Source: a virus (lineage: Duplodnaviria > Heunggongvirae > Uroviricota > Caudoviricetes). Taken from it: a stretch of 12,902 bases of DNA. The stretch's first letter is position 1. Each line of letters opens with the position of its first letter. The stretch lies in IMG/VR virus record IMGVR_UViG_2541047884_000004. One strand, written 5' to 3'. The position numbers and the translations under genes were made by a program. Shown piece after piece: positions 1 through 12,902 of the stretch. The notes beneath the pieces are model-generated. The model worked only from the letters and a program-made list of their open reading frames with translations. It was not told the origin of the DNA and did no database searches.

Positions 1-169
1 GCATCTGTATGTCAGTAATTACCGCGTTCGCCAGCGTCAGTTCTCTGGCATTTTTGTCGCGCTGGGCTTTGTAGGTAATGGCGTTATCACGGTAATGATT
101 AACAGCCCATGACAGGCAGACGATGATGCAGATAACCAGAGCGGAGATAATCGCGGTTACTCTGTTCAT
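1..169 (-). CDS. Rz-like i-spanin, N-terminal part only; gene continues beyond the window start
   Basis: Minus-strand ATG at 169..167 overlaps the endolysin stop (ATGA). My own translation of the reverse complement gives [56 protein letters not shown]..., i.e. an N-terminal TM helix followed by a charged coiled-coil-like region, and it sits directly downstream of the endolysin. Confidence 0.6.
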
Positions 170-663
170 TGCTGACCCCACAAACAGATTTCACGCTCAA
201 TCTCACGACGAGTCATGAGACCTTTCCATTGCTTACCGCCAGCATATGTCCAGCGACGTAGCTGATCACATGCGCCTTTGATATCGCCCTGGTTTATTTT
301 GCGAAGAAGCGTCGATGTTCTGAAATTGCCAGCACCCACGTTGTAAACGAATGAGTAAAGAGCGCCGCGCATTGTTTCCGGTATATCGACTTTGATGTAC
401 GGGTTAATTTGTCTGGCGACCGTGGCAAGGTCTTTATTCAGGAGGGCTTTGCATTCTGCTTTGGTATACGTTTTACCGAGCATGATGTCTTTTCCTGTAT
501 GCCCGTGACATACAGTCCATACACCAACAATATCTTTGTATGGTATGTAGCTGACACCTTCCAGACCATCGTTACCACTTGGGCCAGTGATTAACACTGA
601 TGCTATAGCAATTGCTCCGCCACCAATAGCAGCAGCAACGGCTTTTCGTAATGATGGAGGCAT
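166..663 (-). CDS. R: SAR endolysin, phage 21 R-type lysozyme (GH24)
   Basis: 165-aa ORF. N-terminal Gly/Ala-rich weak TM segment ([18 protein letters not shown]) typical of a signal-anchor-release domain, followed by a T4-lysozyme-like core. Start ATG 663..661 overlaps the holin stop by 1 nt. Confidence 0.88.
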
Positions 664-878
664 TATTCACCTCTCGCAGCCTTGCGCTTATCTTCTTTAA
701 TCTTGAAATAAAGGTTTGTCAGGTACGTCAGCAGGCCAAATACCAGGCTACCCAGCACACCTATTGCCGCCCACTGTGAGGGCGTGACTTTATCGAGCAA
801 CTGTAAAAACCAGTACCCGGCACTACCTGCTGAGGTACCATAGGCGACACCCGTTGTTAACTTATCCATGGATTTCAT
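663..878 (-). CDS. S: Class II holin, pinholin of the phage 21 S type, with dual-start motif
   Basis: 71-aa [29 protein letters not shown]...; two TM segments; Met1 and Met4 separated by Lys-Ser as in the S21 antiholin/holin pair; immediately upstream of a SAR endolysin. Confidence 0.85.
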
Positions 879-1006: not shown

Positions 1007-1037
1007 CAAAAAATGGAAAAACCCGCTCGACGGCGGG
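1007..1037 (-). terminator. Intrinsic terminator, minus-strand polarity, about 140 bp upstream of the holin start
   Basis: GC-rich inverted repeat cccgc-tcgacg-gcggg at 1022..1037; on the minus strand it is followed by TTTTTCCATTTTTT (plus-strand A-run 1007..1021). Confidence 0.5.
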
Positions 1038-1466
1038 TTTAAGCTGTGTGACGAAGTAACCACTCTTAACAGCATAACCAATTTTTTACGTACGTAAACT
1101 ACTAAATGATATTTGTGAGAATGCCACCGAGTGTTCAAAACACCACCACAAATGCATAAGAAAACTTCAACAAATAACCAGTTAATAATTTCCGATGTTA
1201 TTTTTAGTTTGTTTAAATTAAGCTAAAGAATTATAGAGCACTTATAAATAAGTGCCATTAATATAAATTAGCTAATAGATTTATTTTTGTTCAGACAAGA
1301 GCCATGAATAGGATTAGATAGAAAAGGTTCAGATAAAAATAGAGATCTACTTCACAAATTAAATGAGAAACTAAAACTTACATCTTGAAATAATCACATT
1401 GATTAGATGAATATTTATCGCGCAGTGACATCATTTTTTAATAATAGTTCAAAAAAAGGGCGTACA

Positions 1467-2549
1467 ATGAAAAAATTAACAGTGGCAATTTCTGCTGTAG
1501 CTGCATCAGTACTGATGGCGATGTCTGCTCAGGCAGCTGAAATTTATAATAAAGACAGTAACAAGCTGGATCTATACGGGAAAGTTAATGCCAAGCACTA
1601 CTTCTCCTCTAATGATGCAGATGATGGTGATACTACTTATGCCCGTCTTGGCTTCAAAGGTGAAACCCAAATCAACGATCAACTGACTGGTTTCGGTCAG
1701 TGGGAATATGAATTCAAAGGCAACCGTGCTGAATCTCAAGGTTCTTCCAAAGACAAAACCCGTCTTGCATTTGCAGGCCTGAAATTTGGTGATTACGGCT
1801 CAATCGATTACGGCCGTAACTACGGTGTAGCATACGACATCGGTGCGTGGACTGACGTTCTGCCAGAATTCGGTGGTGATACCTGGACCCAAACAGATGT
1901 GTTCATGACTGGTCGCACTACTGGTGTTGCAACTTATCGTAACAACGACTTCTTTGGTCTGGTCGATGGCCTGAACTTTGCTGCTCAGTATCAGGGTAAA
2001 AATGACCGCACTGACGTAACTGAAGCCAATGGTGATGGTTTCGGTTTCTCCACTACTTATGAGTATGAAGGATTCGGCGTGGGTGCAACCTATGCTAAAT
2101 CAGATCGCACTGACGGTCAGGTCGCCTATGGTAAGAGCAAATTCAATGCCTCCGGCAAAAATGCGGAAGTATGGGCTGCAGGCCTGAAATATGATGCGAA
2201 CAATATCTATCTGGCTACCACATATTCTGAAACTCAGAATATGACCGTTTTTGGTAATAACCATATTGCAAACAAAGCACAAAACTTTGAAGCAGTAGCA
2301 CAATATCAGTTTGACTTCGGTCTGCGTCCATCTGTTGCTTACCTTCAGTCAAAAGGTAAAGACCTTGGTGTTCATGGTGACCGAGACTTAGTCAAGTATG
2401 TCGATGTCGGTGCTACTTACTACTTTAATAAAAACATGTCCACTTTTGTTGATTACAAAATCAACTTAATTGACGATAGTAAGTTTACCAAAACAGCTGG
2501 TATTGATACCGACGACATCGTCGCTGTAGGTCTGGTTTATCAGTTCTAA
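1467..2549 (+). CDS. nmpC: OmpC/PhoE-family general porin, phage-borne NmpC/Lc-like
   Basis: Signal peptide [23 protein letters not shown] then [16 protein letters not shown]...; hallmark 16-strand porin motifs ([43 protein letters not shown]-terminal VAVGLVYQF). ATG 1467 is preceded by AAGGG. Location between Q and the lysis genes matches the known nmpC (DLP12) and lc (PA-2) position. Confidence 0.88.
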
Positions 2550-2568
2550 TCTGACTTACGAAAAAGAT

Positions 2569-2603
2569 ATGTTGCGGGAGGCTTTGCCTCCGCAACATAT
2601 AAG
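2569..2603 (-). terminator. Long hairpin with downstream U-run on the minus strand; candidate tR'-like terminator about 140-170 nt downstream of Q
   Basis: atgttgcgggaggc / ttt / gcctccgcaacat (13-14 bp stem, one bulge). Minus-strand transcript would continue AUCUUUUUCG (plus-strand cgaaaaagat at 2558..2568). No T-run on the plus side. Confidence 0.4.
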
Positions 2604-2687: not shown

Positions 2688-2713
2688 GGGGCGTTTCCAC
2701 GCCCCATTTTTAA
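2688..2713 (+). terminator. Intrinsic terminator for the porin transcript
   Basis: 7-bp GC stem ggggcgt / ttcc / acgcccc (2688..2705) followed by ATTTTTAA on the plus strand. Confidence 0.55.
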
Positions 2714-2737: not shown

Positions 2738-3121
2738 TCAATTAGAATTATTAGCAACGATATCCATATCTAACCGGATATCTAATGCCATTAACATCCC
2801 TTCAATTATGCCCTCAGCCTTCTGTAACCTTTTCCCGATATAACCATCCGAGCAGCAATGCTTACTTGCCAGTGACATGAATGTCATACCACATACATAA
2901 TAATCTACTAATAAATCGTGTAAATCGCTGTTGTTCTTTTTCAGACGGGCCATGCACCCGCAAATGATCATCGCGTCATCGTCACAACATTGCGGGCGAG
3001 ATTTTACTTTTGAAGGAATTAATCCCTTAAAACCGGCGGCAATGGACGACCAGGTCACATCTTCATGATTATTAGCCGCCCACGCACCCCAACGCTCAAG
3101 AACCATCTGAATATCACGCAT
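2738..3121 (-). CDS. Q: Late-gene antiterminator Q (DLP12 QuuD-like)
   Basis: 127 aa from ATG 3121 ([18 protein letters not shown]...), preceded by GGAG; the ORF-track start at 3136 is a TTG. Cys-rich ([12 protein letters not shown] ... HCCSDG). Position between rusA/ylcG and the lysis cassette. Confidence 0.7.
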
Positions 3122-3206
3122 CAACTTACTCCACAAAAATCAGACCAGAACGCCAATTACAAGCAAAAATCAACAAAACAGTATTAGTTGATTGTTATCT
3201 CTGACT

Positions 3207-3347
3207 TCATACTCCTGTTCCTGTCAGGGTTTTGGCGTAATTCTTCAGTATTCGGTAATCGGTCAAAACAGAACCGAGGAAACGATATAAGCGCAGACGC
3301 CCCCAGCGGTGGCGAAGAAGTTCTGCCATATTAAACTCAAACATCAT
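3207..3347 (-). CDS. Small YlcG-like protein (46 aa)
   Basis: Not in the ORF track (too short). My translation: [46 protein letters not shown]. Start overlaps the rusA stop (ATG 3347..3345 against TGA 3346..3344). A small gene of this kind lies between rusA and Q in DLP12-type prophages. Confidence 0.45.
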
Positions 3348-3706
3348 TCATTCCCCATTTCGGTGATGGTCAGTTCCAGCCTCCCACCTTTGGTAACAGG
3401 CATCTTCACAACGCGGTAATCAACGACCTGAGCATCATCCAGCCAGAAACCTGCTTTAGTGAGTGCGTCAAAAGCGGCTTTTTGCAGATTATCCAGGTCA
3501 CGGCGACGGCGATCCGGCATGTGGCACTCAATGCGGATTTTCACAGGCATAGCCAGGCCGATATCCAGCATTGCGTTTTTAATGATTCGGGCGACGTTAT
3601 CGCGGTATGCCTGCCCCTCTGCGCTGACGTGCGTGCGCCCGCGATTATGGCGGTAATAGCGATTATTGCTCGGAGGCCAGGGTAATGTGATGCTGTAGGT
3701 ATTCAC
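3344..3706 (-). CDS. rusA: Holliday junction resolvase RusA
   Basis: 120-aa [49 protein letters not shown]...; matches the RusA family as I recall it, including the acidic catalytic residues. The start codon on the DNA is GTG, preceded by GAGGGGG. Confidence 0.9.
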
Positions 3707-5758: not shown

Positions 5759-6456
5759 ACACTTGCTCCTTTCAGTCCTAACTTAGCTTTAATTTCTGCG
5801 ATCTTCGCCAGCGCCTGAACACGATTTAGAGGTCTGCCGCCCATGACAGGAAGTTGTTTTACTGGTTCAGGTATCGTCTCACCACGGTTAATTCGCGCTG
5901 TCATACAGGTCAGTTCATCGGCAGCCTTGCGTCGTAATTCCGCGTCAGTCAGCGCATTGGCCCGCATGTTCTGGTACAGGTTGGTAACCAGCCAGTAGTG
6001 CGCGTTCGATTTCCACGGATAAGACTCTGCATCCGGATACAGGCCTCGCTTCCGGCAATACTCGTAAACCATATCAACCAGCTCGCTGACGTTTGGCAGT
6101 CCGGCGATAACGGATGCTTCTTCCCGGCACCATGCAACAAACTGCCCGGGTGATGGCAGAAATGGTCGATTCTGCCGACGGGCTACGCGCATTCCTGCGT
6201 TAACCTGTTCCATTGTGGTGATCCCGTTTTCCCGGAAAGCCAGAACCCACTGGCGGCGGATTTCGTTCAGTTCGTTCTGGTCACGGTTAGCCAGACTCGC
6301 CGGGAAAGTTGCCAGTAACTGGCTGAACACACCGTTGATGATCTGCGCTACCTGCTGTACCTGCGGCTTTTCGTCGTACTGTTCCGGCATGTTGTTGGCG
6401 ATCCGACGCATCTGCTCACGGTCAAAATTAACCATCTGTGCGGCGATGTTTTTCAT
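5755..6456 (-). CDS. P: Replication protein P (DnaB helicase loader)
   Basis: 233 aa MKNIAAQMVNFDREQMRRIANNMPEQYDEKPQVQQVAQIINGVFSQLL...; near-identical to lambda P as recalled. ATG 6456 overlaps the O stop. Confidence 0.95.
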   Translation of the reverse strand: MKNIAAQMVNFDREQMRRIANNMPEQYDEKPQVQQVAQIINGVFSQLLATFPASLANRDQNELNEIRRQWVLAFRENGITTMEQVNAGMRVARRQNRPFLPSPGQFVAWCREEASVIAGLPNVSELVDMVYEYCRKRGLYPDAESYPWKSNAHYWLVTNLYQNMRANALTDAELRRKAADELTCMTARINRGETIPEPVKQLPVMGGRPLNRVQALAKIAEIKAKLGLKGASV

Positions 6457-6801
6457 AAATCCACCCCGTAAATCCAGTCAGTGTTTGTCAGGTCGAGTTT
6501 TGGTTTGCAGGCTGTCACACCTGCCTGTTGCTTGTTACGGTTGATTTCGAGCTGGGTCCACTTGTCGCGGAGTTTGGCCGGGCTCAGCACGTTACCGGAC
6601 CAGAAGTTGTCCTGGCATGCCCAGCGGAACAGTACACACATGTCGCGATGGTTACGTCCGTCACGTTCACGCATCAGGCGGATATCGTTAGCCCACCCTG
6701 CAAAATTCGGTTTTCTGGCTGATGGCGCGATGGTCTTCACCATGTCAAACATCCATTCTGCGGCGGTCAGGTCTTCTGCTGTCCCCCACTTGCTGCCGCT
6801 C
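6453..6801 (-). pseudogene. O: Replication initiator O, C-terminal (P-interacting) fragment, separated from its 5' part by an IS insertion
   Basis: In-frame translation from the IS boundary reads SGSKWGTAEDLTAAEWMFDMVKTIAPSARKPNFAGWANDIRLMRERDG...GVDL, matching the lambda O C-terminus. No promoter or start of its own; the upstream boundary is the IS end at 6802. Confidence 0.9.
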
Positions 6802-6855
6802 TGAACCGCCCCGGGAATCCTGGAGACTAAACTTCCTGAGAAAGAGGTAAACAGG

Positions 6856-7182
6856 ATGACTAAAAATACTCGTTTTTCCCCCGAAGTCCGTCAACGGGCA
6901 GTCCGTATGGTTCTGGAAAGTCAGAGCGAATATGACTCACAATGGGCGACAATTTGTTCCATTGCTCCAAAGATTGGCTGTACGCCGGAGACTCTGCGTG
7001 TCTGGGTTCGCCAGCATGAGCGGGATACCGGGGGCGGTGATGGAGGGCTCACCACCGCTGAACGTCAGCGTCTGAAAGAGCTGGAACGTGAAAATCGTGA
7101 ACTGCGCCGCAGTAACGATATCCTTCGCCAGGCTTCCGCTTATTTTGCGAAGGCGGAGTTCGACCGCCTCTGGAAAAAATGA
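6856..7182 (+). CDS. IS3-family transposase OrfA (HTH/leucine-zipper part)
   Basis: 108 aa [55 protein letters not shown]...; ends in an A6 run (7174..7179) where the -1 frame OrfB begins. Confidence 0.9.
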
Positions 7183-8069
7183 TGCCACTGCTGGATAAGC
7201 TGCGTGAGCAGTACGGGGTCGGACCGCTATGCAGCGAACTGCATATTGCCCCGTCAACGTATTACCACTGTCAGCAACAGCGACATCATCCGGATAAACG
7301 CAGTGCCCGTGCGCAGCGCGATGACTGGCTGAAGAAAGAGATACAGCGCGTATACGATGAAAATCACAAGGTATACGGTGTGCGTAAAGTCTGGCGTCAG
7401 TTGTTACGGGAAGGTATCAGAGTGGCCAGATGCACTGTGGCACGTCTCATGGCGGTTATGGGACTTGCCGGTGTTCTCCGGGGTAAAAAGGTCCGTACGA
7501 CCATCAGCCGGAAAGCCGTTGCCGCAGGCGACCGCGTAAACCGTCAGTTCGTGGCAGAACGACCTGACCAGCTGTGGGTGGCTGATTTTACTTACGTCAG
7601 CACATGGCGGGGCTTCGTCTATGTGGCGTTCATCATTGATGTGTTTGCCGGATACATCGTGGGGTGGCGGGTCTCATCGTCCATGGAAACGACATTCGTG
7701 CTGGATGCACTGGAGCAGGCGTTATGGGCCCGTCGACCGTCCGGCACGGTCCATCACAGTGATAAAGGTTCTCAGTATGTATCGCTGGCCTACACACAGC
7801 GGCTTAAGGAAGCCGGATTACTGGCATCAACAGGAAGTACAGGCGACTCGTATGACAACGCGATGGCGGAGAGCATCAATGGTCTTTACAAAGCGGAGGT
7901 AATACACCGTAAGAGCTGGAAAAACCGTGCAGAAGTGGAACTGGCCACACTCACGTGGGTGGACTGGTATAACAATCGACGATTGCTGGAAAGGCTGGGC
8001 CATACTCCTCCGGCAGAAGCAGAAAAAGCTTATTATGCTTCCATCGGAAACGATGATCTGGCAGCCTGA
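7179..8069 (+). CDS. IS3-family transposase OrfB (DDE catalytic domain); OrfAB fusion expected by programmed -1 frameshift
   Basis: 296 aa with an rve-type integrase core (…[31 protein letters not shown]… [11 protein letters not shown] … [17 protein letters not shown]…). Overlaps OrfA in the -1 frame at the A-run. Confidence 0.9.
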
Positions 8070-8111
8070 GTTCACAGATAAAACACTCTCCAGGAAACCC
8101 GGGGCGGTTCA

Positions 8112-8665
8112 CTCTGAATTGCAGCATCCGGTTTCACCACAGAAAGGTCGTTTTCTGGCTGGTCAGAGGATTCGCCAGAATTCTCTGACGAATAATCTTT
8201 TCTTTTTTCTTTTGTAATAGTGTCTTTTGTGTCCCCCTGTTTTGAGGGATAGCAATCCCCCAATTTGAGGGATGTTTTATCCCTCGTTTTAGGGGATTTT
8301 CCCTCGTTTTGAGGGATACACCATTCTGAGATGTTTTTATTTGGTCCAAACATGCCGCCTTGCTGCTTGATAATATTCATTCTGACGAGTTCTAACTTGG
8401 CTTCATTGCACCGTTTGACGGGTAACTTTGTAATCTCGCTAAGTTGAGAATCGGTGATTCTGTCCATTGGTTTATTCCATCCATAGGTTTTACGCAGAAT
8501 GGCAAGCAGCACTTTAAACTGTCGCTTGGTCAGATCTGCGCCTGAATAAGCCTCAAGCAGCATATTTGATAGTCTGGCGTAACCATCATCGAGATCTGCC
8601 ACATTACGCTCCTGTTTGGCAAAGTTACCTCTGCAGAAGTTGAGTATTTTTGCTGTATTTGTCAT
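8112..8665 (-). pseudogene. O: Replication initiator O, N-terminal (ori-binding) fragment, truncated by the IS insertion
   Basis: ATG 8665 with AGGAG RBS; MTNTAKILNFCRGNFAKQERNVADLDDGYARLSNMLLEAYSGADLTKRQFKVLLAILRKTYGWNKPMDRITDSQL... matches lambda O. The reading frame runs into the IS end and stops at 8072 after 15 IS-encoded residues. Confidence 0.9.
8185..8317. repeat. ori-lambda-type replication origin inside O: four iterons plus adjacent AT-rich region
   Basis: Four ~18-19 bp near-palindromic repeats of the TCCCTC-N-GAGGGA type (about 8232..8250, 8255..8273, 8279..8297, 8300..8317), flanked by the AT-rich stretch 8185..8231 (tgacgaataatcttttcttttttcttttgtaatagtg). Confidence 0.75.
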
Positions 8666-9351: not shown

Positions 9352-9462
9352 ATGCCCTCCATAGTAAACACGAATAAAAAAATACAATATGTACTTTGCG
9401 AATACAAGTAAAAATACACATTGTGCATGGATGGTTCCAGTACAGAGCGTAATAATAAGGAC
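9352..9462. promoter_or_regulatory. OR region: divergent pR (for cro) and pRM (for cI) with TACA/TGTA-type operator repeats
   Basis: Candidate pR on the minus strand: TTGTAT (9407..9402), 17-bp spacer, TATTTT (9384..9379). Operator-like near-palindromes include TACAATATGTA (9383..9393) and TACAAGTA (9403..9410). The motif at 9382..9397 is shared with the pL region. Candidate pRM -10 TAATAA (9450..9455) lies 7 bp before the cI ATG. Confidence 0.55.
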
Positions 9463-10122
9463 ATGAAAATGAAATGGTATGAACTGGCTAGATCCAGAAT
9501 GAAAGAGCTCGGCATAACTCAAGAGAAGTTAGCCGAAGAGCTAGGTATGACGCAGGGTGGGATTGGACACTGGTTGCGCGGATCTCGTCATCCATCTCTT
9601 AGTGATATTGGTGTGGTGTTTAAATACCTTGGTATTGATAACATATCATTCAACCACGACGGGACATTTTCACCTGTTGGCGAATACTCATCGGCCCCAG
9701 TTAAAAAACAATATGAGTACCCTGTTTTTTCTCATGTTCAGGCTGGGATGTTCTCTCCAGAACTCAGAACCTTTACCAAAGGCGATGCGGAGAGATTGGT
9801 AAGCACAACCAAAAAAGCCAGTGACTCTGCATTCTGGCTTGAGGTTGAAGGTAACTCAATGACCGCACCAACAGGTTCCAAACCCAGCTTTCCTGACGGG
9901 ATGTTAATTCTGGTTGACCCTGAGCAAGCTGTTGAGCCCGGCGATTTCTGCATAGCCAGACTTGGTGGTGATGAATTTACCTTCAAGAAACTGATCAGGG
10001 ATAGCGGTCAGGTGTTTCTACAGCCACTAAACCCACAATACCCAATGATCCCATGCAATGAGAGTTGTTCCGTTGTGGGGAAAGTTATCGCCAGCCAATG
10101 GCCTGAAGAGACGTTTGGGTGA
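9463..10122 (+). CDS. cI: CI prophage repressor: HTH N-terminal domain plus S24 (LexA-like) autocleavage C-terminal domain
   Basis: C-terminal ~150 aa ([71 protein letters not shown]...[10 protein letters not shown]) match lambda CI as recalled, including the GNSM serine and catalytic Lys regions. N-terminal DNA-binding domain differs from lambda. Start taken at ATG 9463 (ATG 9469 also possible). Confidence 0.9.
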
Positions 10123-10161: not shown

Positions 10162-10719
10162 TTGGCAAAAATAGATGATTATCAGCCAAGCCAAGTAGAA
10201 GTTGATAAAGTACTTTATTGTAAAAAAATAGTTAACTTTTCTGGCGTTAAATGGAAACAGAAACCAAGTCGCTCTGATATGTGGCTACAAGCCCATATCA
10301 TCCCCTTGGATGAGGATTGTATACCTATACAAGGGCTAAAGTTTGAACTGAAATGGAAACCAGATCAGGATTCAGAACCTGATGACCCGATTTCTTACCC
10401 TAAAATAAATATTATTGCTTTCTATCATAACAAGAGGGTTTTCGCGGTAGATACCTATCACTTTGACAAACACACGAATAGTTACAAGGTCGATCATCCG
10501 AAGTACCAAGATATCATTTACGGTGCTCACTACCATGTATACTATGAAGAAGCTGGATACTATAGTGATAGAATAGCGTTTCCAATCGAAGATGACATAA
10601 ACCCAGATGGCCTGGTAGGGTATTGGAATTACTTCTGTAAACATCTGAACATAACTTACTCTGGGAGAATACCTTTACCGCTTGAAGATGAGTCGGGGCA
10701 AATGGGGTTTGGAATATGA
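10162..10719 (+). CDS. Hypothetical protein, 185 aa, no recognised family; first gene of a two-gene cassette at the rexAB-equivalent locus
   Basis: Long ORF in AT-rich DNA immediately downstream of cI. First in-frame start is TTG at 10162 (preceded by AGGGCGG); no in-frame ATG until codon 40. Hydrophilic, rich in aromatic and acidic residues, no obvious TM segment. Confidence 0.6.
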   Translation: MAKIDDYQPSQVEVDKVLYCKKIVNFSGVKWKQKPSRSDMWLQAHIIPLDEDCIPIQGLKFELKWKPDQDSEPDDPISYPKINIIAFYHNKRVFAVDTYHFDKHTNSYKVDHPKYQDIIYGAHYHVYYEEAGYYSDRIAFPIEDDINPDGLVGYWNYFCKHLNITYSGRIPLPLEDESGQMGFGI

Positions 10720-11468
10720 TGTGCGCAACAGTGATCTCACAACTAGGTTTCGAATGCCATCCAATAGGCAAGACCTTGAGAATTATCAGTCCATTCACTT
10801 ACTGTGATGATGGAGAGCATGTCGGTGCCTTTATCCGTGAAGTCAATGGTAGGTATTTAGTTAGTGACAGATGCGATGCCTTAATGAATATGGAGGCAAG
10901 AGGGATCTCGCTTACCAAAAAACGACTTGATGAGATACGACAATTACTGCTTAAAGAAGGCGCAGAACTCAATGCTCGAGGAGAAATCATTGCTTGGGCA
11001 ACAGAAAAGGATGTCGGTGCGATTACATCGAACATAATTAGAGCTGGTATACTCGCATCAACTTTGTCGTTAGACTGGTATCAGCCAGTTCAAGCTGAAA
11101 AGTTTGAAAGTATGGTTATTGATTATCTATATCACACAGAGCTTAGAGACGCACTTTCTCTTCGTGAAAACGTATATGGCTTGAGTGGACATCAAATTAC
11201 CGTCCCTGTAACAATAAAAACCGACATACCTAAATACGTTTTTACATCAAGCGTGAAACACGGAGGAAGCTGGAATAGTGCTTACTCATTGCTTGGGAAA
11301 CTAATTGATCTTAAAGCTTCAAGTGAGGAGTATAACAACAGATTTGTTGTTATAGACAGCGAAGCAATTGGTGATCAAATGCAACAACTCTCCTTACTCT
11401 TCCATGAATCAAGCCAAGTTCTACCATTCTCCAAAAGAGAGACTTGGGTTAAGAGACTTGCAGCATAA
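10716..11468 (+). CDS. Hypothetical protein, 250 aa, no recognised family; second gene of the cassette
   Basis: ATG 10716 overlaps the stop of the upstream gene (ATGATG...TGA, typical translational coupling). Same strand as cI, followed within 6 nt by an intrinsic terminator. No TM segments apparent. Confidence 0.65.
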   Translation: MMCATVISQLGFECHPIGKTLRIISPFTYCDDGEHVGAFIREVNGRYLVSDRCDALMNMEARGISLTKKRLDEIRQLLLKEGAELNARGEIIAWATEKDVGAITSNIIRAGILASTLSLDWYQPVQAEKFESMVIDYLYHTELRDALSLRENVYGLSGHQITVPVTIKTDIPKYVFTSSVKHGGSWNSAYSLLGKLIDLKASSEEYNNRFVVIDSEAIGDQMQQLSLLFHESSQVLPFSKRETWVKRLAA

Positions 11469-12193: not shown

Positions 12194-12775
12194 TTACTTG
12201 TTTTTGCCATGCTTATCCTGAGCGATAAGTTCATCCATAAGGCTGTCTGCCTTCCCGGCAAACCTAATGTAGCACTCATGTCTATAGCTTTCAGGGATAA
12301 CGAAACGGTCGGTATCAGGATATCCAACAGCAGGAGGCCTTCGAACGAGGAGTCCTTTTTTGAGCAATGAAATTGATTCATGAGCGCCCTTTTCCGTTTG
12401 TAGCTGGTTATTAGCGGCTACAGCGAATGCCAAATACGCTCTTTCTCCAAGAGTTAACGAATCAAACAAATCTTGCACATATTTTTCTTCTTTAGATTTG
12501 CGCTTCTGAGCAGCGAATACCTCAATTCTTTCAGTCACAGCGTGATAAGCGGAATTAACAACGCCGTTAAGCACATAGCTAACGCAAAACAACAGGATGT
12601 AATACATCCAGTAATGAGGAAGGATTTCTGGATTATGCAGGTTTATCCATTCTTTTACGCTTACCGGCATAACAATAATCAATATGATCAGGATGATTAG
12701 CATATGAATCAACTGTTTAAGTGTCATTCCTTGCAGGAAAAAATGCATTAGTTCCTGCCACCATGAGTTGTTCAT
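12194..12775 (-). CDS. sieB: Superinfection exclusion protein B
   Basis: 193 aa from ATG 12775 (MNNSWWQELMHFFLQGMTLKQLIHMLIILIILIIVMPVSVKEW...), hydrophobic N-terminal TM region; near-identical to lambda SieB as recalled. Convergent with N. Confidence 0.85.
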   Translation of the reverse strand: MNNSWWQELMHFFLQGMTLKQLIHMLIILIILIIVMPVSVKEWINLHNPEILPHYWMYYILLFCVSYVLNGVVNSAYHAVTERIEVFAAQKRKSKEEKYVQDLFDSLTLGERAYLAFAVAANNQLQTEKGAHESISLLKKGLLVRRPPAVGYPDTDRFVIPESYRHECYIRFAGKADSLMDELIAQDKHGKNK

Positions 12776-12809: not shown

Positions 12810-12902
12810 TGAACCGCCCCGGGTTTCCTGGAGAGTGTTTTATCTGTGAACTCAGGCTGCCAGATCATCGTTTCCGATGGAAGCATAATAAGCTTTTTCT
12901 GC
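12810..12902 (-). mobile_element. End of a second IS3-family (IS629/IS1203-like) copy, inverted relative to the first; continues beyond the window
   Basis: 12810..12902 is the reverse complement of 8019..8111, the right end of the complete copy including its terminal inverted repeat and the 3' end of OrfB. Confidence 0.88.

Follow-up and report, generated by a model that had tools for sequence, protein, structure and literature searches.

We analyzed a window of 12,902 nt, the whole stretch of DNA under study, from a virus of the class Caudoviricetes (IMG/VR record IMGVR_UViG_2541047884_000004). It carries an outer-membrane porin gene between the antiterminator gene Q and the lysis genes, transcribed from the opposite strand. 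The features of this locus, with their coordinates in the window and the evidence for each, are as follows.

166-663 (-): endolysin, an RrrD-type lysozyme (PF00959; annotation)
663-878 (-): holin of the phage-21 S type, EssD (PF04971; UTI89/CFT073-type annotation)
1009-1040 (-): intrinsic terminator past the late promoter and ahead of the holin gene, with an 8-bp stem and then TTCCATTTTT, almost unchanged across 8 copies
1044-1064 (no strand): CRP-binding site 1 of the PA-2 lc annotation, 0 mismatches to J02580.1 misc_binding 1067-1087
1339-1359 (no strand): CRP-binding site 2 of the PA-2 lc annotation, 0 mismatches to J02580.1 misc_binding 1363-1383
1385-1414 (+): candidate sigma-70 promoter of the porin gene, TTGAAA, 18-nt spacer and GAATAT, with a predicted start near 1421
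1418-1450 (-): late promoter equivalent to DLP12 essDp, with a sigma-E-like GAACT at 1450-1446, a 17-nt spacer and TCACT at 1428-1424
1456-1460 (+): AAGGG resembling a Shine-Dalgarno sequence, 6 nt ahead of the start codon and the same in 8 phage/prophage copies
1467-2549 (+): porin coding sequence of the NmpC/Lc group, 360 aa plus stop (RefSeq WP_000737271.1)
1467-1535 (+): porin signal peptide, 23 codons
2550-2711 (+): structured 3'UTR of the porin gene, about 162 nt from stop codon to terminator, counterpart of the DLP12/PA-2 ipeX region
2560-2600 (-): terminator-like hairpin, its stem at 2567-2600 with 15 bp and a 1-nt bulge, then CTTTTTC on the minus strand
2688-2711 (+): intrinsic terminator of the porin transcript, GGGGCGTTTCCACGCCCC then ATTTTT, with a 7-bp GC stem
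2738 to about 3121-3136 (-): antiterminator gene Q of the QuuD type, running towards the porin gene (PF06530, 181 bits; quuD in UTI89 and CFT073)
3344-3706 (-): RusA (profile search)

The porin frame, as read from the sequence, begins with an ATG at 1467 and ends with a stop codon whose last base is 2549 (+), with 0 internal stops. An earlier, sequence-only reading of this DNA had described a complete OmpC/PhoE-family porin with its own signal peptide and ribosome-binding site, and each of these elements was borne out. The product covers the full Pfam Porin_1 profile (PF00267, positions 1-337 of 337; 504.7 bits, cutoff 23.7, E = 1.9e-151) and scores above the cutoff of the NCBIfam "porin OmpC" model, which is a subfamily and not an equivalog model (521 bits, cutoff 484); its scores against the NCBIfam PhoE and OmpF equivalog models fall under their respective cutoffs. 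Solved chains of OmpC, OmpK36, PhoE and OmpF align with it from end to end, scoring about 390-460 bits; OmpC, OmpK36, OmpK37 and PhoE reach 450-460 bits. A full-length match to phrog_410 scores 742 bits. The PA-2 lc record annotates a sig_peptide that residues 1-23 reproduce exactly. The mature protein then begins at residue 24 with AEIYNK, and in the alignment this residue falls on residue 1 of the crystallised OmpC chains. The motifs that define general porins are PEFGG in the constriction loop L3 and a C-terminal aromatic residue, the beta-signal for outer-membrane assembly; in the present protein, PEFGG occupies residues 133-137 and the C-terminus reads ...VGLVYQF. At about 70% identity to solved OmpC, the protein would be expected to adopt the trimeric 16-strand beta-barrel fold. 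A single-sequence AlphaFold model reached a pLDDT of 33, and its strands and loops were unusable.

A longer open reading frame starting at 1407 was rejected because the A-run before the ribosome-binding site varies in length among phages, breaking the frame. None of the PADLOC models matched the porin, which is therefore not catalogued there as a defence gene. The names given to it differ between sources, with "porin OmpC" in RefSeq and OmpD in phage records. We rejected the ompC orthology that the RefSeq name would imply, based on the prophage locus between quuD and essD, an identity of 70.7% and the presence of loop indels. The gene is the already known NmpC/Lc gene, an assignment that is correct but ordinary.

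The order Q (-), porin (+), holin (-) is invariant in 7 lambdoid phages, and the layout of the porin locus is common to PA-2, DLP12, Perceval, PhiR70_1, ev099, PhiR26_1, mEp332 and Kati. Across 8 copies, PA-2 and DLP12 among them, the 590 nt upstream of the porin are 94% conserved and the downstream spacer between porin and Q is about 95% conserved. Flanks conserved at 94-95% agree with the earlier view that this is the locus of Lc in PA-2 and of NmpC in DLP12.

The upstream region has a GC content of 26-29%. Judged by its bases, the Shine-Dalgarno-like AAGGG is weak to moderate in strength. The candidate porin promoter is a weak consensus match chosen by eye, in a block that is invariant in 8 copies, and it was not called by a consensus promoter scan. 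Of the 10 consensus positions in TGTGA-N6-TCACA, 8 are kept in the core of CRP site 2, AGAGATCTACTTCACA, and the site centre at 1348.5 corresponds to -72.5 from the predicted porin start, a standard class I spacing. An Rfam search of the porin leader, at gathering thresholds and at E<=1, found no family.

On the downstream side, the predicted terminator was also recovered, although it lies 139 nt past the stop codon and not immediately behind it; its stem is invariant in 8 copies, with only the loop varying. The 3'UTR that precedes it is 95% identical to the nmpC-quuD spacer of K-12 (about 10 positions differ) and folds at -53.6 kcal/mol, with z = -6.1 relative to shuffles. Rfam assigned no family to this 3'UTR at the gathering threshold or at E<=1, and the sub-threshold matches sau-19 and Trp_leader were rejected as chance hits to what are merely terminator hairpins. 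The hairpin at 2567-2600, read on the plus strand, is the first stem of the porin 3'UTR. Its stem is kept in 8 copies, with a differing bulged base, and a terminator scan did not call it, probably owing to the bulge. On the minus strand, the same hairpin at 2560-2600 stands directly downstream of Q, where it may terminate transcription leaving Q and would then shield the porin from antisense readthrough.

The sequence-only reading had also stated that host porins are lost in lysogens, but the 3'UTR had escaped its notice. IpeX is a stable RNA of about 167 nt that is processed from the porin transcript, and the original study, in its abstract, reportedly saw no obvious base-pairing with ompC. 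In the PA-2 literature, Lc and IpeX are tied to the loss of OmpC, which is the receptor of PA-2. A literature search of our own on PA-2, Lc, OmpC and lysogens found nothing. IpeX RNA from the porin 3'UTR of DLP12 and PA-2 has been reported as a repressor of OmpC and OmpF (PMC12197685, PMC5069750, PMC8065619), and it is to this RNA, carried in the 3'UTR of the porin transcript, that the disappearance of host porins from PA-2 lysogens has been attributed (PMC12197685, PMC8065619, PMC5069750). The corresponding region is conserved here. By analogy with these phages, an IpeX-type RNA, and not the protein alone, is the likely cause of host-porin loss. Based on its similarity to the K-12 counterpart, the present 3'UTR would be expected to have IpeX activity, and we assume this activity to be equal to that of K-12.

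Taken together, the locus is best explained as a self-contained lambdoid moron cassette that is expressed in the lysogen and shifts the cell surface from OmpC/OmpF to a phage porin through both the protein and an IpeX-type RNA (probability about 0.88). Its parts would be a regulatory region rich in A and T, the intact porin gene of NmpC/Lc type and, behind this gene, a structured 3'UTR with an intrinsic terminator; the whole would stand between Q and the late promoter on which Q acts, and would read towards Q. In the lysogen, host RNA polymerase would transcribe the porin gene independently of the phage repressor, under a regulation that is probably CRP-dependent and temperature-responsive. 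The precursor would then be exported via Sec, its 23-residue signal peptide cleaved, and the protein inserted by BAM. The result would be a diffusion pore, trimeric and with 16 strands, present alongside OmpC/OmpF or in their place. The 3'UTR RNA, as reported for ipeX of DLP12/PA-2, would lower the synthesis of OmpC and OmpF post-transcriptionally. The lysogen surface would in this way move to the phage porin, with OmpC/OmpF receptors gone for other phages and colicins and with permeability and antigenicity altered.

The earlier reading spoke of lysogenic conversion; the present copy is really a resident gene of a decaying prophage damaged by IS3, which lies in the replication gene O. A superinfection benefit for this particular prophage is conjecture; the window contains no tail genes.

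We compared the porin alleles and found them to be mosaics, with a conserved 5' third and an anciently diverged remainder. Between allele types, barrel codons gave a dN of 0.01 against a dS of about 1.07 (dN/dS about 0.01), and 27 of the 29 replacements fell in surface loops; the loop boundaries used for this split are estimates from OmpC/OmpF topology, supported by the porin indels relative to solved OmpC, which are located in the same estimated loops. The low dN relative to dS in the barrel indicates strong purifying selection and thus a working protein. The loop alleles fall into three anciently diverged classes (the window type, the Lc/K-12 type and the PhiR70_1/ev099 type), which share their flanks and one conserved 5' third. 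A doubtful further reading of this pattern is that the exposed loops are under balancing selection, exerted by phages using the porin as a receptor or by host immunity.

At the DNA level, the porin gene is 100% identical in many chromosomes of ExPEC, e.g. UTI89, CFT073, S88 and APEC O1, and the allele is concentrated in ExPEC, APEC and AIEC strains, with hundreds of sequenced genomes carrying it. Matches were present in 3,171 complete genomes. The protein is 100% identical in phages ev207, ev017, 2G7b and Perceval and in those PhiR phages that were propagated on K-12, C or ECOR13. IMG/VR contained 461 confirmed relatives; the best 80 of the 461 all have a 100% identical protein, which makes them uninformative on variation but attests to the commonness of the allele, and allele diversity was instead sampled by tblastn over phage records. 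The same prophage also carries other surface or virulence morons, namely iss/bor and a TonB fragment, and sitABCD is found among the morons of Perceval (PMC9928086).

This distribution raises the possibility that the main selected role of the porin lies in host physiology or virulence rather than in phage defence, with the repression of host porins as a by-product, a view that we regard as rather unlikely but the strongest of the alternatives. It is compatible with the cassette described above and differs from it only in the dominant benefit, for which the PA-2 literature, with Lc and IpeX tied to the loss of that phage's own receptor, points to the phage side. The role could be in permeability at 37 C, in heat or bile tolerance, or in antigenic variation against immunity. 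Consistent with such a role are the concentration of the allele in ExPEC, APEC and AIEC, the adjoining surface and virulence morons (iss/bor and the TonB fragment here, sitABCD in Perceval), the induction of the porin gene at 37 C and the link between NmpC and heat resistance in AW1.7 (cited in PMC12890032). The confinement of divergence to loops fits immune as well as phage pressure. However, nmpC showed no significant association with any pathotype (PMC9409007).

The sequence-only reading had placed the porin between Q and the lysis genes and had taken it to be transcribed against the late operon. The position and the opposite orientation are confirmed; a crossing of the gene by the late transcript is probably not the case. 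The essDp equivalent starts near 1418 (-), faces the holin gene and stands back-to-back with the 5' end of the porin gene, in a block that is invariant in 8 copies. The DLP12 essDp amplicon was made with primer Pdlp12Fw and described as "-121 to +650" (PMC7918800). In the window, Pdlp12Fw maps to 1539-1520 (-) with 0 mismatches and the reverse primer to about 753-774, so the fragment with published promoter activity begins within the signal-peptide codons of the porin. The sigma-E identity of this promoter is a single-laboratory claim, made for DLP12. The terminator at 1009-1040 (-) is a candidate tR', which Q would override; Q itself has a distant match to the Q21 structures 6P18 and 6JNX. 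We also considered as PR' a sigma-70-like promoter at 1258-1230 (-) (ATGGCA, 17-nt spacer, TATAAT). It lies where the intergenic region is least conserved, and essDp maps elsewhere, which is why we rejected it as the main late promoter; its -35 is not kept, nor is its -10 in two phages. Because essDp maps to about 1418 (-), between the porin and holin genes, the porin probably sits outside the late transcript, between Q and the target promoter of Q.

In classical lambdoid phages (lambda, 21, 82), PR' is found directly after Q. An equivalent arrangement here would put the porin inside the late operon, with the late transcript running antisense through it; induction would then silence the gene, either through colliding transcription or through antisense RNA. 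In favour of this, the spacer between Q and the porin shows high conservation, and the minus-strand hairpin and T-run at 2600-2560 could act in the manner of tR' and end a short RNA of the 6S type. We nevertheless consider this arrangement improbable. No sigma-70-like promoter was called at 2737-2600 (-) in the scan, the active essDp fragment begins in the signal-peptide codons with its +1 at about 1418, and a second terminator, at 1040-1019, stands just upstream of the holin gene, where tR' is expected. As for the conserved spacer, IpeX alone accounts for it.

The locus c1560 of CFT073 is presumably the same as the present porin locus. In that strain, nmpC/c1560 is induced at 37 C at both the mRNA and the protein level (PMC12890032), and nmpC is among the genes most strongly induced at 37 C in CFT073 and K-12 (PMC12890032, PMC8544407). 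In LF82, NmpC of Perceval has been defined by experiment as a moron, transcribed 10-fold above the prophage background (PMC9928086), and an NmpC spot was identified by mass spectrometry in outer-membrane profiles of AIEC (PMC9409007). The sequence-only reading had named a lack of expression in lysogens as its refutation; what has been documented is expression, for the identical Perceval protein in LF82 (PMC9928086). By analogy with that protein, the present porin would be expected to show moron-type expression from its lysogen. It is very unlikely that the gene is silent or "quiescent", as nmpC was reported to be in E. coli B, and kept only because the prophage is young, with no conversion phenotype: the promoter match is weak, an upstream GC content of 26-29% is typical of H-NS-silenced DNA and the prophage in the window is decaying, but the 10-fold transcription in LF82 (PMC9928086), the protein in AIEC outer membranes (PMC9409007), the strong 37 C induction of mRNA and protein in CFT073 (PMC12890032) and a barrel dN/dS of about 0.01 across anciently diverged alleles, unlike that of silent genes, all argue otherwise.

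The lysogen-expressed moron cassette thus remains our preferred explanation. A further, doubtful elaboration is that the cassette is not a simple insert and is wired as a two-way switch with the lytic programme. The porin start at about 1421 (+) and the late start at about 1418 (-) would share one invariant stretch of about 60 bp, and RNA polymerase at either of these back-to-back promoters should exclude the other. At the opposite end, the Q transcript appears to end at 2600-2560 (-), inside the porin 3'UTR, and the porin transcript would end 27 nt from the Q stop codon, so that the two RNAs would overlap in antisense by about 150 nt over the IpeX region. If such a switch exists, on induction the porin would be turned off and IpeX neutralised at the same time, so that host porins return or envelope capacity becomes available before the cell lyses, and lysogeny would have the opposite effect.

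Phage-borne porins are a textbook form of lysogenic conversion, in which phage and colicin attachment, the entry of small molecules and antibiotics, and immune visibility are changed. The RefSeq label "OmpC" on the present allele may mislead porin typing, the inference of antibiotic permeability and work on vaccine antigens. Beyond this caution on naming, the window adds no news on the porin gene itself. Useful by-products of the analysis are a map of the parts of the cassette (porin, IpeX-type 3'UTR, divergent late promoter and convergent terminators) and the recognition of the alleles as loop mosaics under strong barrel constraint.

Among known systems, the Lc porin of PA-2 (protein 2; J02580.1) occupies the same locus: Rz-R-S share a strand, the porin is encoded opposite to them, and Q follows on its far side. 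The 23-aa signal peptide and the first 98 residues are identical to those of the present porin, both CRP sites are exact in the present copy and the downstream spacer is about 95% identical. The two proteins (365 aa in PA-2, 360 aa here) are nevertheless different allele types with 90.7% identity overall; from codon 149 onward, synonymous divergence has reached saturation (dS about 1.6), with replacements and indels concentrated in the estimated loops L4-L8. PA-2 is an active phage, whereas the present copy lies in an IS3-damaged prophage. The DLP12 prophage (qsr') of K-12 shows the same order, rusA-ylcG-quuD / nmpC / essD-rrrD-rzpD, together with the same flanks, 3'UTR and late-promoter block. 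There, IS5B interrupts nmpC after 1040 nt, 58 nt before the stop codon, whereas the present gene is intact, as the sequence-only reading had stated. When the gene fragments are joined, K-12 NmpC is an intact protein of 365 aa that is of the Lc allele type and 90.7% identical to the present porin.

More distant relatives share the protein fold without the locus. The chromosomal porins OmpC, OmpF and PhoE and the Salmonella OmpD have in common with the present porin the Porin_1 fold, PEFGG in L3 and the C-terminal signature. Relative to solved OmpC, to which it is 70.7% identical at ungapped positions, the present porin has an L4 that is 11 residues shorter, further loop indels and its own regulatory region with CRP sites. 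NmpC of the P1-like phage P7 is phage-borne, belongs to the same group and is 81% identical with a similar signal peptide, but it lies between odaA and ssb, without the Q/holin neighbourhood, and its 5' third has also diverged (dS about 2). The closest counterparts are those of Perceval (LF82), ev207, ev017 and 2G7b, with the same layout, a 100% identical protein and 99.5-100% identical DNA including the flanks. These phages are inducible or plaque-forming, whereas the present prophage is hit by IS3 in O; their cassettes and the present one are without differences.

The sequence-only reading had described a complete porin of the OmpC/PhoE family with its own signal peptide, ribosome-binding site and terminator, and our analysis showed that this finding is real and correctly interpreted. 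The ORF at 1467-2549 (+) runs for 360 codons without interruption. In a Pfam profile search its product covered the entire Porin_1 profile (504.7 bits, E = 1.9e-151), and end-to-end alignments with the solved chains of OmpC, OmpK36, OmpK37, PhoE and OmpF scored 390-460 bits and paired mature residue 24 (AEIYNK) with the first residue of the crystallised porins. The protein also has PEFGG in L3 and ends in YQF. Among NCBIfam models, the protein passed the "porin OmpC" subfamily model (521 bits, cutoff 484) and did not reach the PhoE and OmpF equivalog cutoffs; the PHROGs family phrog_410 covered its full length (742 bits). Over residues 1-23 the sequence agrees exactly with the signal peptide given in the PA-2 lc record, a Shine-Dalgarno-like AAGGG lies 6 nt 5' of the ATG, and the sole + strand terminator called 3' of the gene (2688-2705 plus T-run) begins 139 nt past the stop. 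The position between Q and the lysis genes, on the opposite strand, was likewise borne out by the surrounding features:

166-663 (-), lysozyme
663-878 (-), holin, phage-21-type
2738-3136 (-), Q (PF06530)
3344-3706 (-), RusA

The porin is already known down to the exact allele. The segment 1200-2760 occurs at 100% identity in many complete E. coli chromosomes, such as UTI89, CFT073-lineage strains, S88, APEC O1, IHE3034, ABU 83972 and ATCC 11775. A related copy was present in 3,171 of 5,426 complete genomes, with 657 records matching at 99% or more; RefSeq labels the gene "porin OmpC", and it adjoins quuD. The temperate phages ev207, ev017, 2G7b, 4A7, Perceval and several PhiR phages, the latter propagated on K-12, C or ECOR13, carry it at 99.5-100% DNA identity and encode an identical protein. 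IMG/VR contained 461 relatives, of which the best 80 were all 100% identical.

The sequence-only reading had named a lack of expression in lysogens as what would refute it. Because the NmpC of Perceval, a phage of strain LF82, is this same protein and is transcribed 10-fold above prophage background (PMC9928086), published work already answers for this allele whether the gene is expressed in lysogens, and it is. NmpC was identified by MALDI in outer-membrane profiles of AIEC (PMC9409007), and CFT073 nmpC/c1560, judged from its position to be likely the locus of the window porin, was preferentially expressed at 37 C as mRNA and protein (PMC12890032). In K-12, the nmpC promoter was strongly induced at 37 C (PMC8544407), and RybB is reported to target the nmpC mRNA (PMC3333887).

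The DLP12 lysis-operon regulatory region has been cloned as "-121 to +650", with primers in the supplement (PMC7918800). Reverse-complemented, the forward primer matches 1520-1539 exactly, within the porin signal-peptide codons, and so places the late-promoter +1 near 1418 (-); the reverse primer maps to about 753-774, in agreement with +650. On the 5' side of this start stand GAACT (1450-1446) and, after a 17-nt spacer, TCACT (1428-1424), a sigma-E-like motif that agrees with the dependence on RpoE and Q cited by that study. This block is invariant in 8/8 copies, and the intrinsic terminator that the scan called on the - strand at 1040-1019, past the late start and ahead of the holin gene, is the natural candidate for the one overridden by Q. 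At the other end of the porin, a hairpin at 2567-2600, read by eye, is followed by CTTTTTC on the - strand and so looks like a terminator for transcription exiting Q; the terminator scan did not call it because of a 1-nt bulge. The Q gene and the promoter that Q targets thus flank the porin cassette, and we infer that the cassette is shielded on both sides. A PR' located directly after Q, with a late transcript running antisense through the porin, has a low probability.

The consensus promoter scan called no + strand promoter for the porin. The best candidate, in a region of 26-29% GC, combines TTGAAA (1385-1390), an 18-nt spacer and GAATAT (1409-1414), and predicts a start near 1421. Relative to that start, the conserved CRP site (centre 1348.5) would lie at -72.5, which is a class I position. 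About 60 bp of invariant sequence (1385-1450) hold both this predicted promoter with its 5'UTR (+) and, overlapping them back to back, the sigma-E/Q-dependent late promoter (-) known from the literature, so that transcription of the moron and of the late genes might be mutually exclusive. The convergent terminators are staggered within 2560-2711: the apparent one of Q, on the - strand, falls in the porin 3'UTR, and that of the porin, on the + strand, is 27 nt away from the stop codon of Q. Transcripts of Q and of the porin would therefore be mutually antisense over about 150 nt across the IpeX-type region.

The porin 3'UTR (2550-2711; 162 nt from the stop codon to the terminator T-run) folds into four hairpins plus the terminator, at -53.6 kcal/mol, whereas shuffled sequences averaged -31.8 (z = -6.1), and no Rfam model was found for it. 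It corresponds to the DLP12/PA-2 region from which IpeX, the RNA reported to repress OmpC/OmpF, arises. Reportedly, ipeX lies inside 247 bp from the stop of the IS5-truncated nmpC to the terminator; the 58 nt of nmpC fragment 2 plus the 189-nt spacer also make 247, in agreement with the geometry seen here. The loss of host porins cited in the sequence-only reading therefore most likely stems from this 3'UTR RNA.

Lambdoid-phage porins fall into three allele classes: the window/Perceval class (360 aa), the PhiR70_1/ev099 class (360 aa, 94-95% identical) and the Lc/K-12 class (365 aa, ~91% identical). Among the compared copies (window versus L002, L084 and L086-L091), both flanks and codons 1-148 are near-identical across classes.

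Substitution rates of the window porin versus the Lc/K-12 allele type
Codons 1-148: dS 0.08-0.21, dN ~0
Codons 149 to end: dS ~1.6 (saturated), dN 0.09
Codons 149 to end, outside estimated loops: dS ~1.07, dN 0.01
Codons 149 to end, inside estimated loops: dS not calculable (saturated), dN 0.20-0.22

Of the 29 replacements relative to the Lc/K-12 type, 27 lie inside loops (end of L3, L4-L8) whose limits are estimates from OmpC/OmpF topology, AlphaFold without an alignment having given a pLDDT of only 33. Indels relative to solved OmpC also coincide with estimated loop segments. The gene is thus a recombinational mosaic: its 5' third and its flanks are common to the classes, while its 3' parts diverged anciently, with a tightly conserved barrel and differences restricted to the exposed loops as estimated.

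A complete IS3 at 6802-8111 (25-nt inverted repeats, orfA/orfB, ALIL frameshift pseudoknot at 7137-7253) interrupts the lambda-type replication gene O, leaving an N-part at 8072-8665 (-) and a C-part at 6453-6752 (-). The same insertion occurs in KE51 and three other human isolates, whereas the UTI89 prophage, an intact version, has an intact O and no IS3 in the region shown, and that of CFT073 has IS3 elsewhere, between ninB and ren. A second IS3 end at 12810-12902 adjoins sieB (12194-12775); it is 100% complementary to 8019-8111 and so has the opposite orientation to the first copy. Between sieB and this IS3, the window is without 3,377 bp (ral, cIII, kil, gam, bet, exo and others) that KE51 has, a difference that points to a deletion next to the IS3; a genome with the exact sieB/IS3 junction was not identified. 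Around an untouched porin cassette, the prophage is therefore decaying and probably replication-defective.

The CI-like repressor (HTH plus S24 peptidase; 9421-10122, 233 aa) is intact in the window, while the CFT073 RefSeq record, 99.9% identical elsewhere, annotates it as split into a short HTH ORF and a pseudogene (12428-13129 of that locus); the window therefore does not derive from this CFT073 assembly. Directly 3' of the repressor, in the position of lambda rexAB, two overlapping genes (10162-10719 and 10716-11468, +) match the two components of PDC-M24, a candidate defence system in PADLOC; the match to A is weak (E = 1.2e-3) and that to B spans the full length (E = 5e-10, DUF1828). This pair may represent a second exclusion module linked to the repressor operon. 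Beyond the window's left end, just past Rz, the UTI89 and CFT073 prophages carry iss/bor, encoding a serum-survival lipoprotein, and a TonB-fragment gene (10184-10477 and 2383-2676 of the respective loci). The porin thus belongs to a cluster of surface-related morons around the lysis module.

What remains new is the possible regulatory coupling, through divergent promoters that overlap and convergent 3' ends that do likewise, and the putative loop-mosaic population structure, both outside the original claim.

Over eight copies including PA-2 and DLP12, the 590 nt upstream of the porin are 94% conserved and the 189-nt spacer to the Q stop about 95%. The two CRP sites annotated in PA-2 recur at 1044-1064 and 1339-1359 with 0 mismatches each, and the Q(-)/porin(+)/holin(-) arrangement was the same in every lambdoid phage inspected. 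Locus, sequence and flanks therefore establish the window porin as a member of the NmpC/Lc cassette. Identity as an ompC ortholog was rejected: the protein shares 70.7% identity with a solved OmpC and shows indels at residues 95-96, 142, 179, 223-225 and 302. K-12 DLP12 shares the gene order of the window, but its nmpC is, as the sequence-only reading had stated, disrupted, being split by IS5B 58 nt ahead of the stop; the rejoined fragments give a 365-aa protein 90.7% identical to the window porin. PA-2 Lc (J02580.1) is also 90.7% identical, and the porin of P7, in a P1-type context, is 81% identical.
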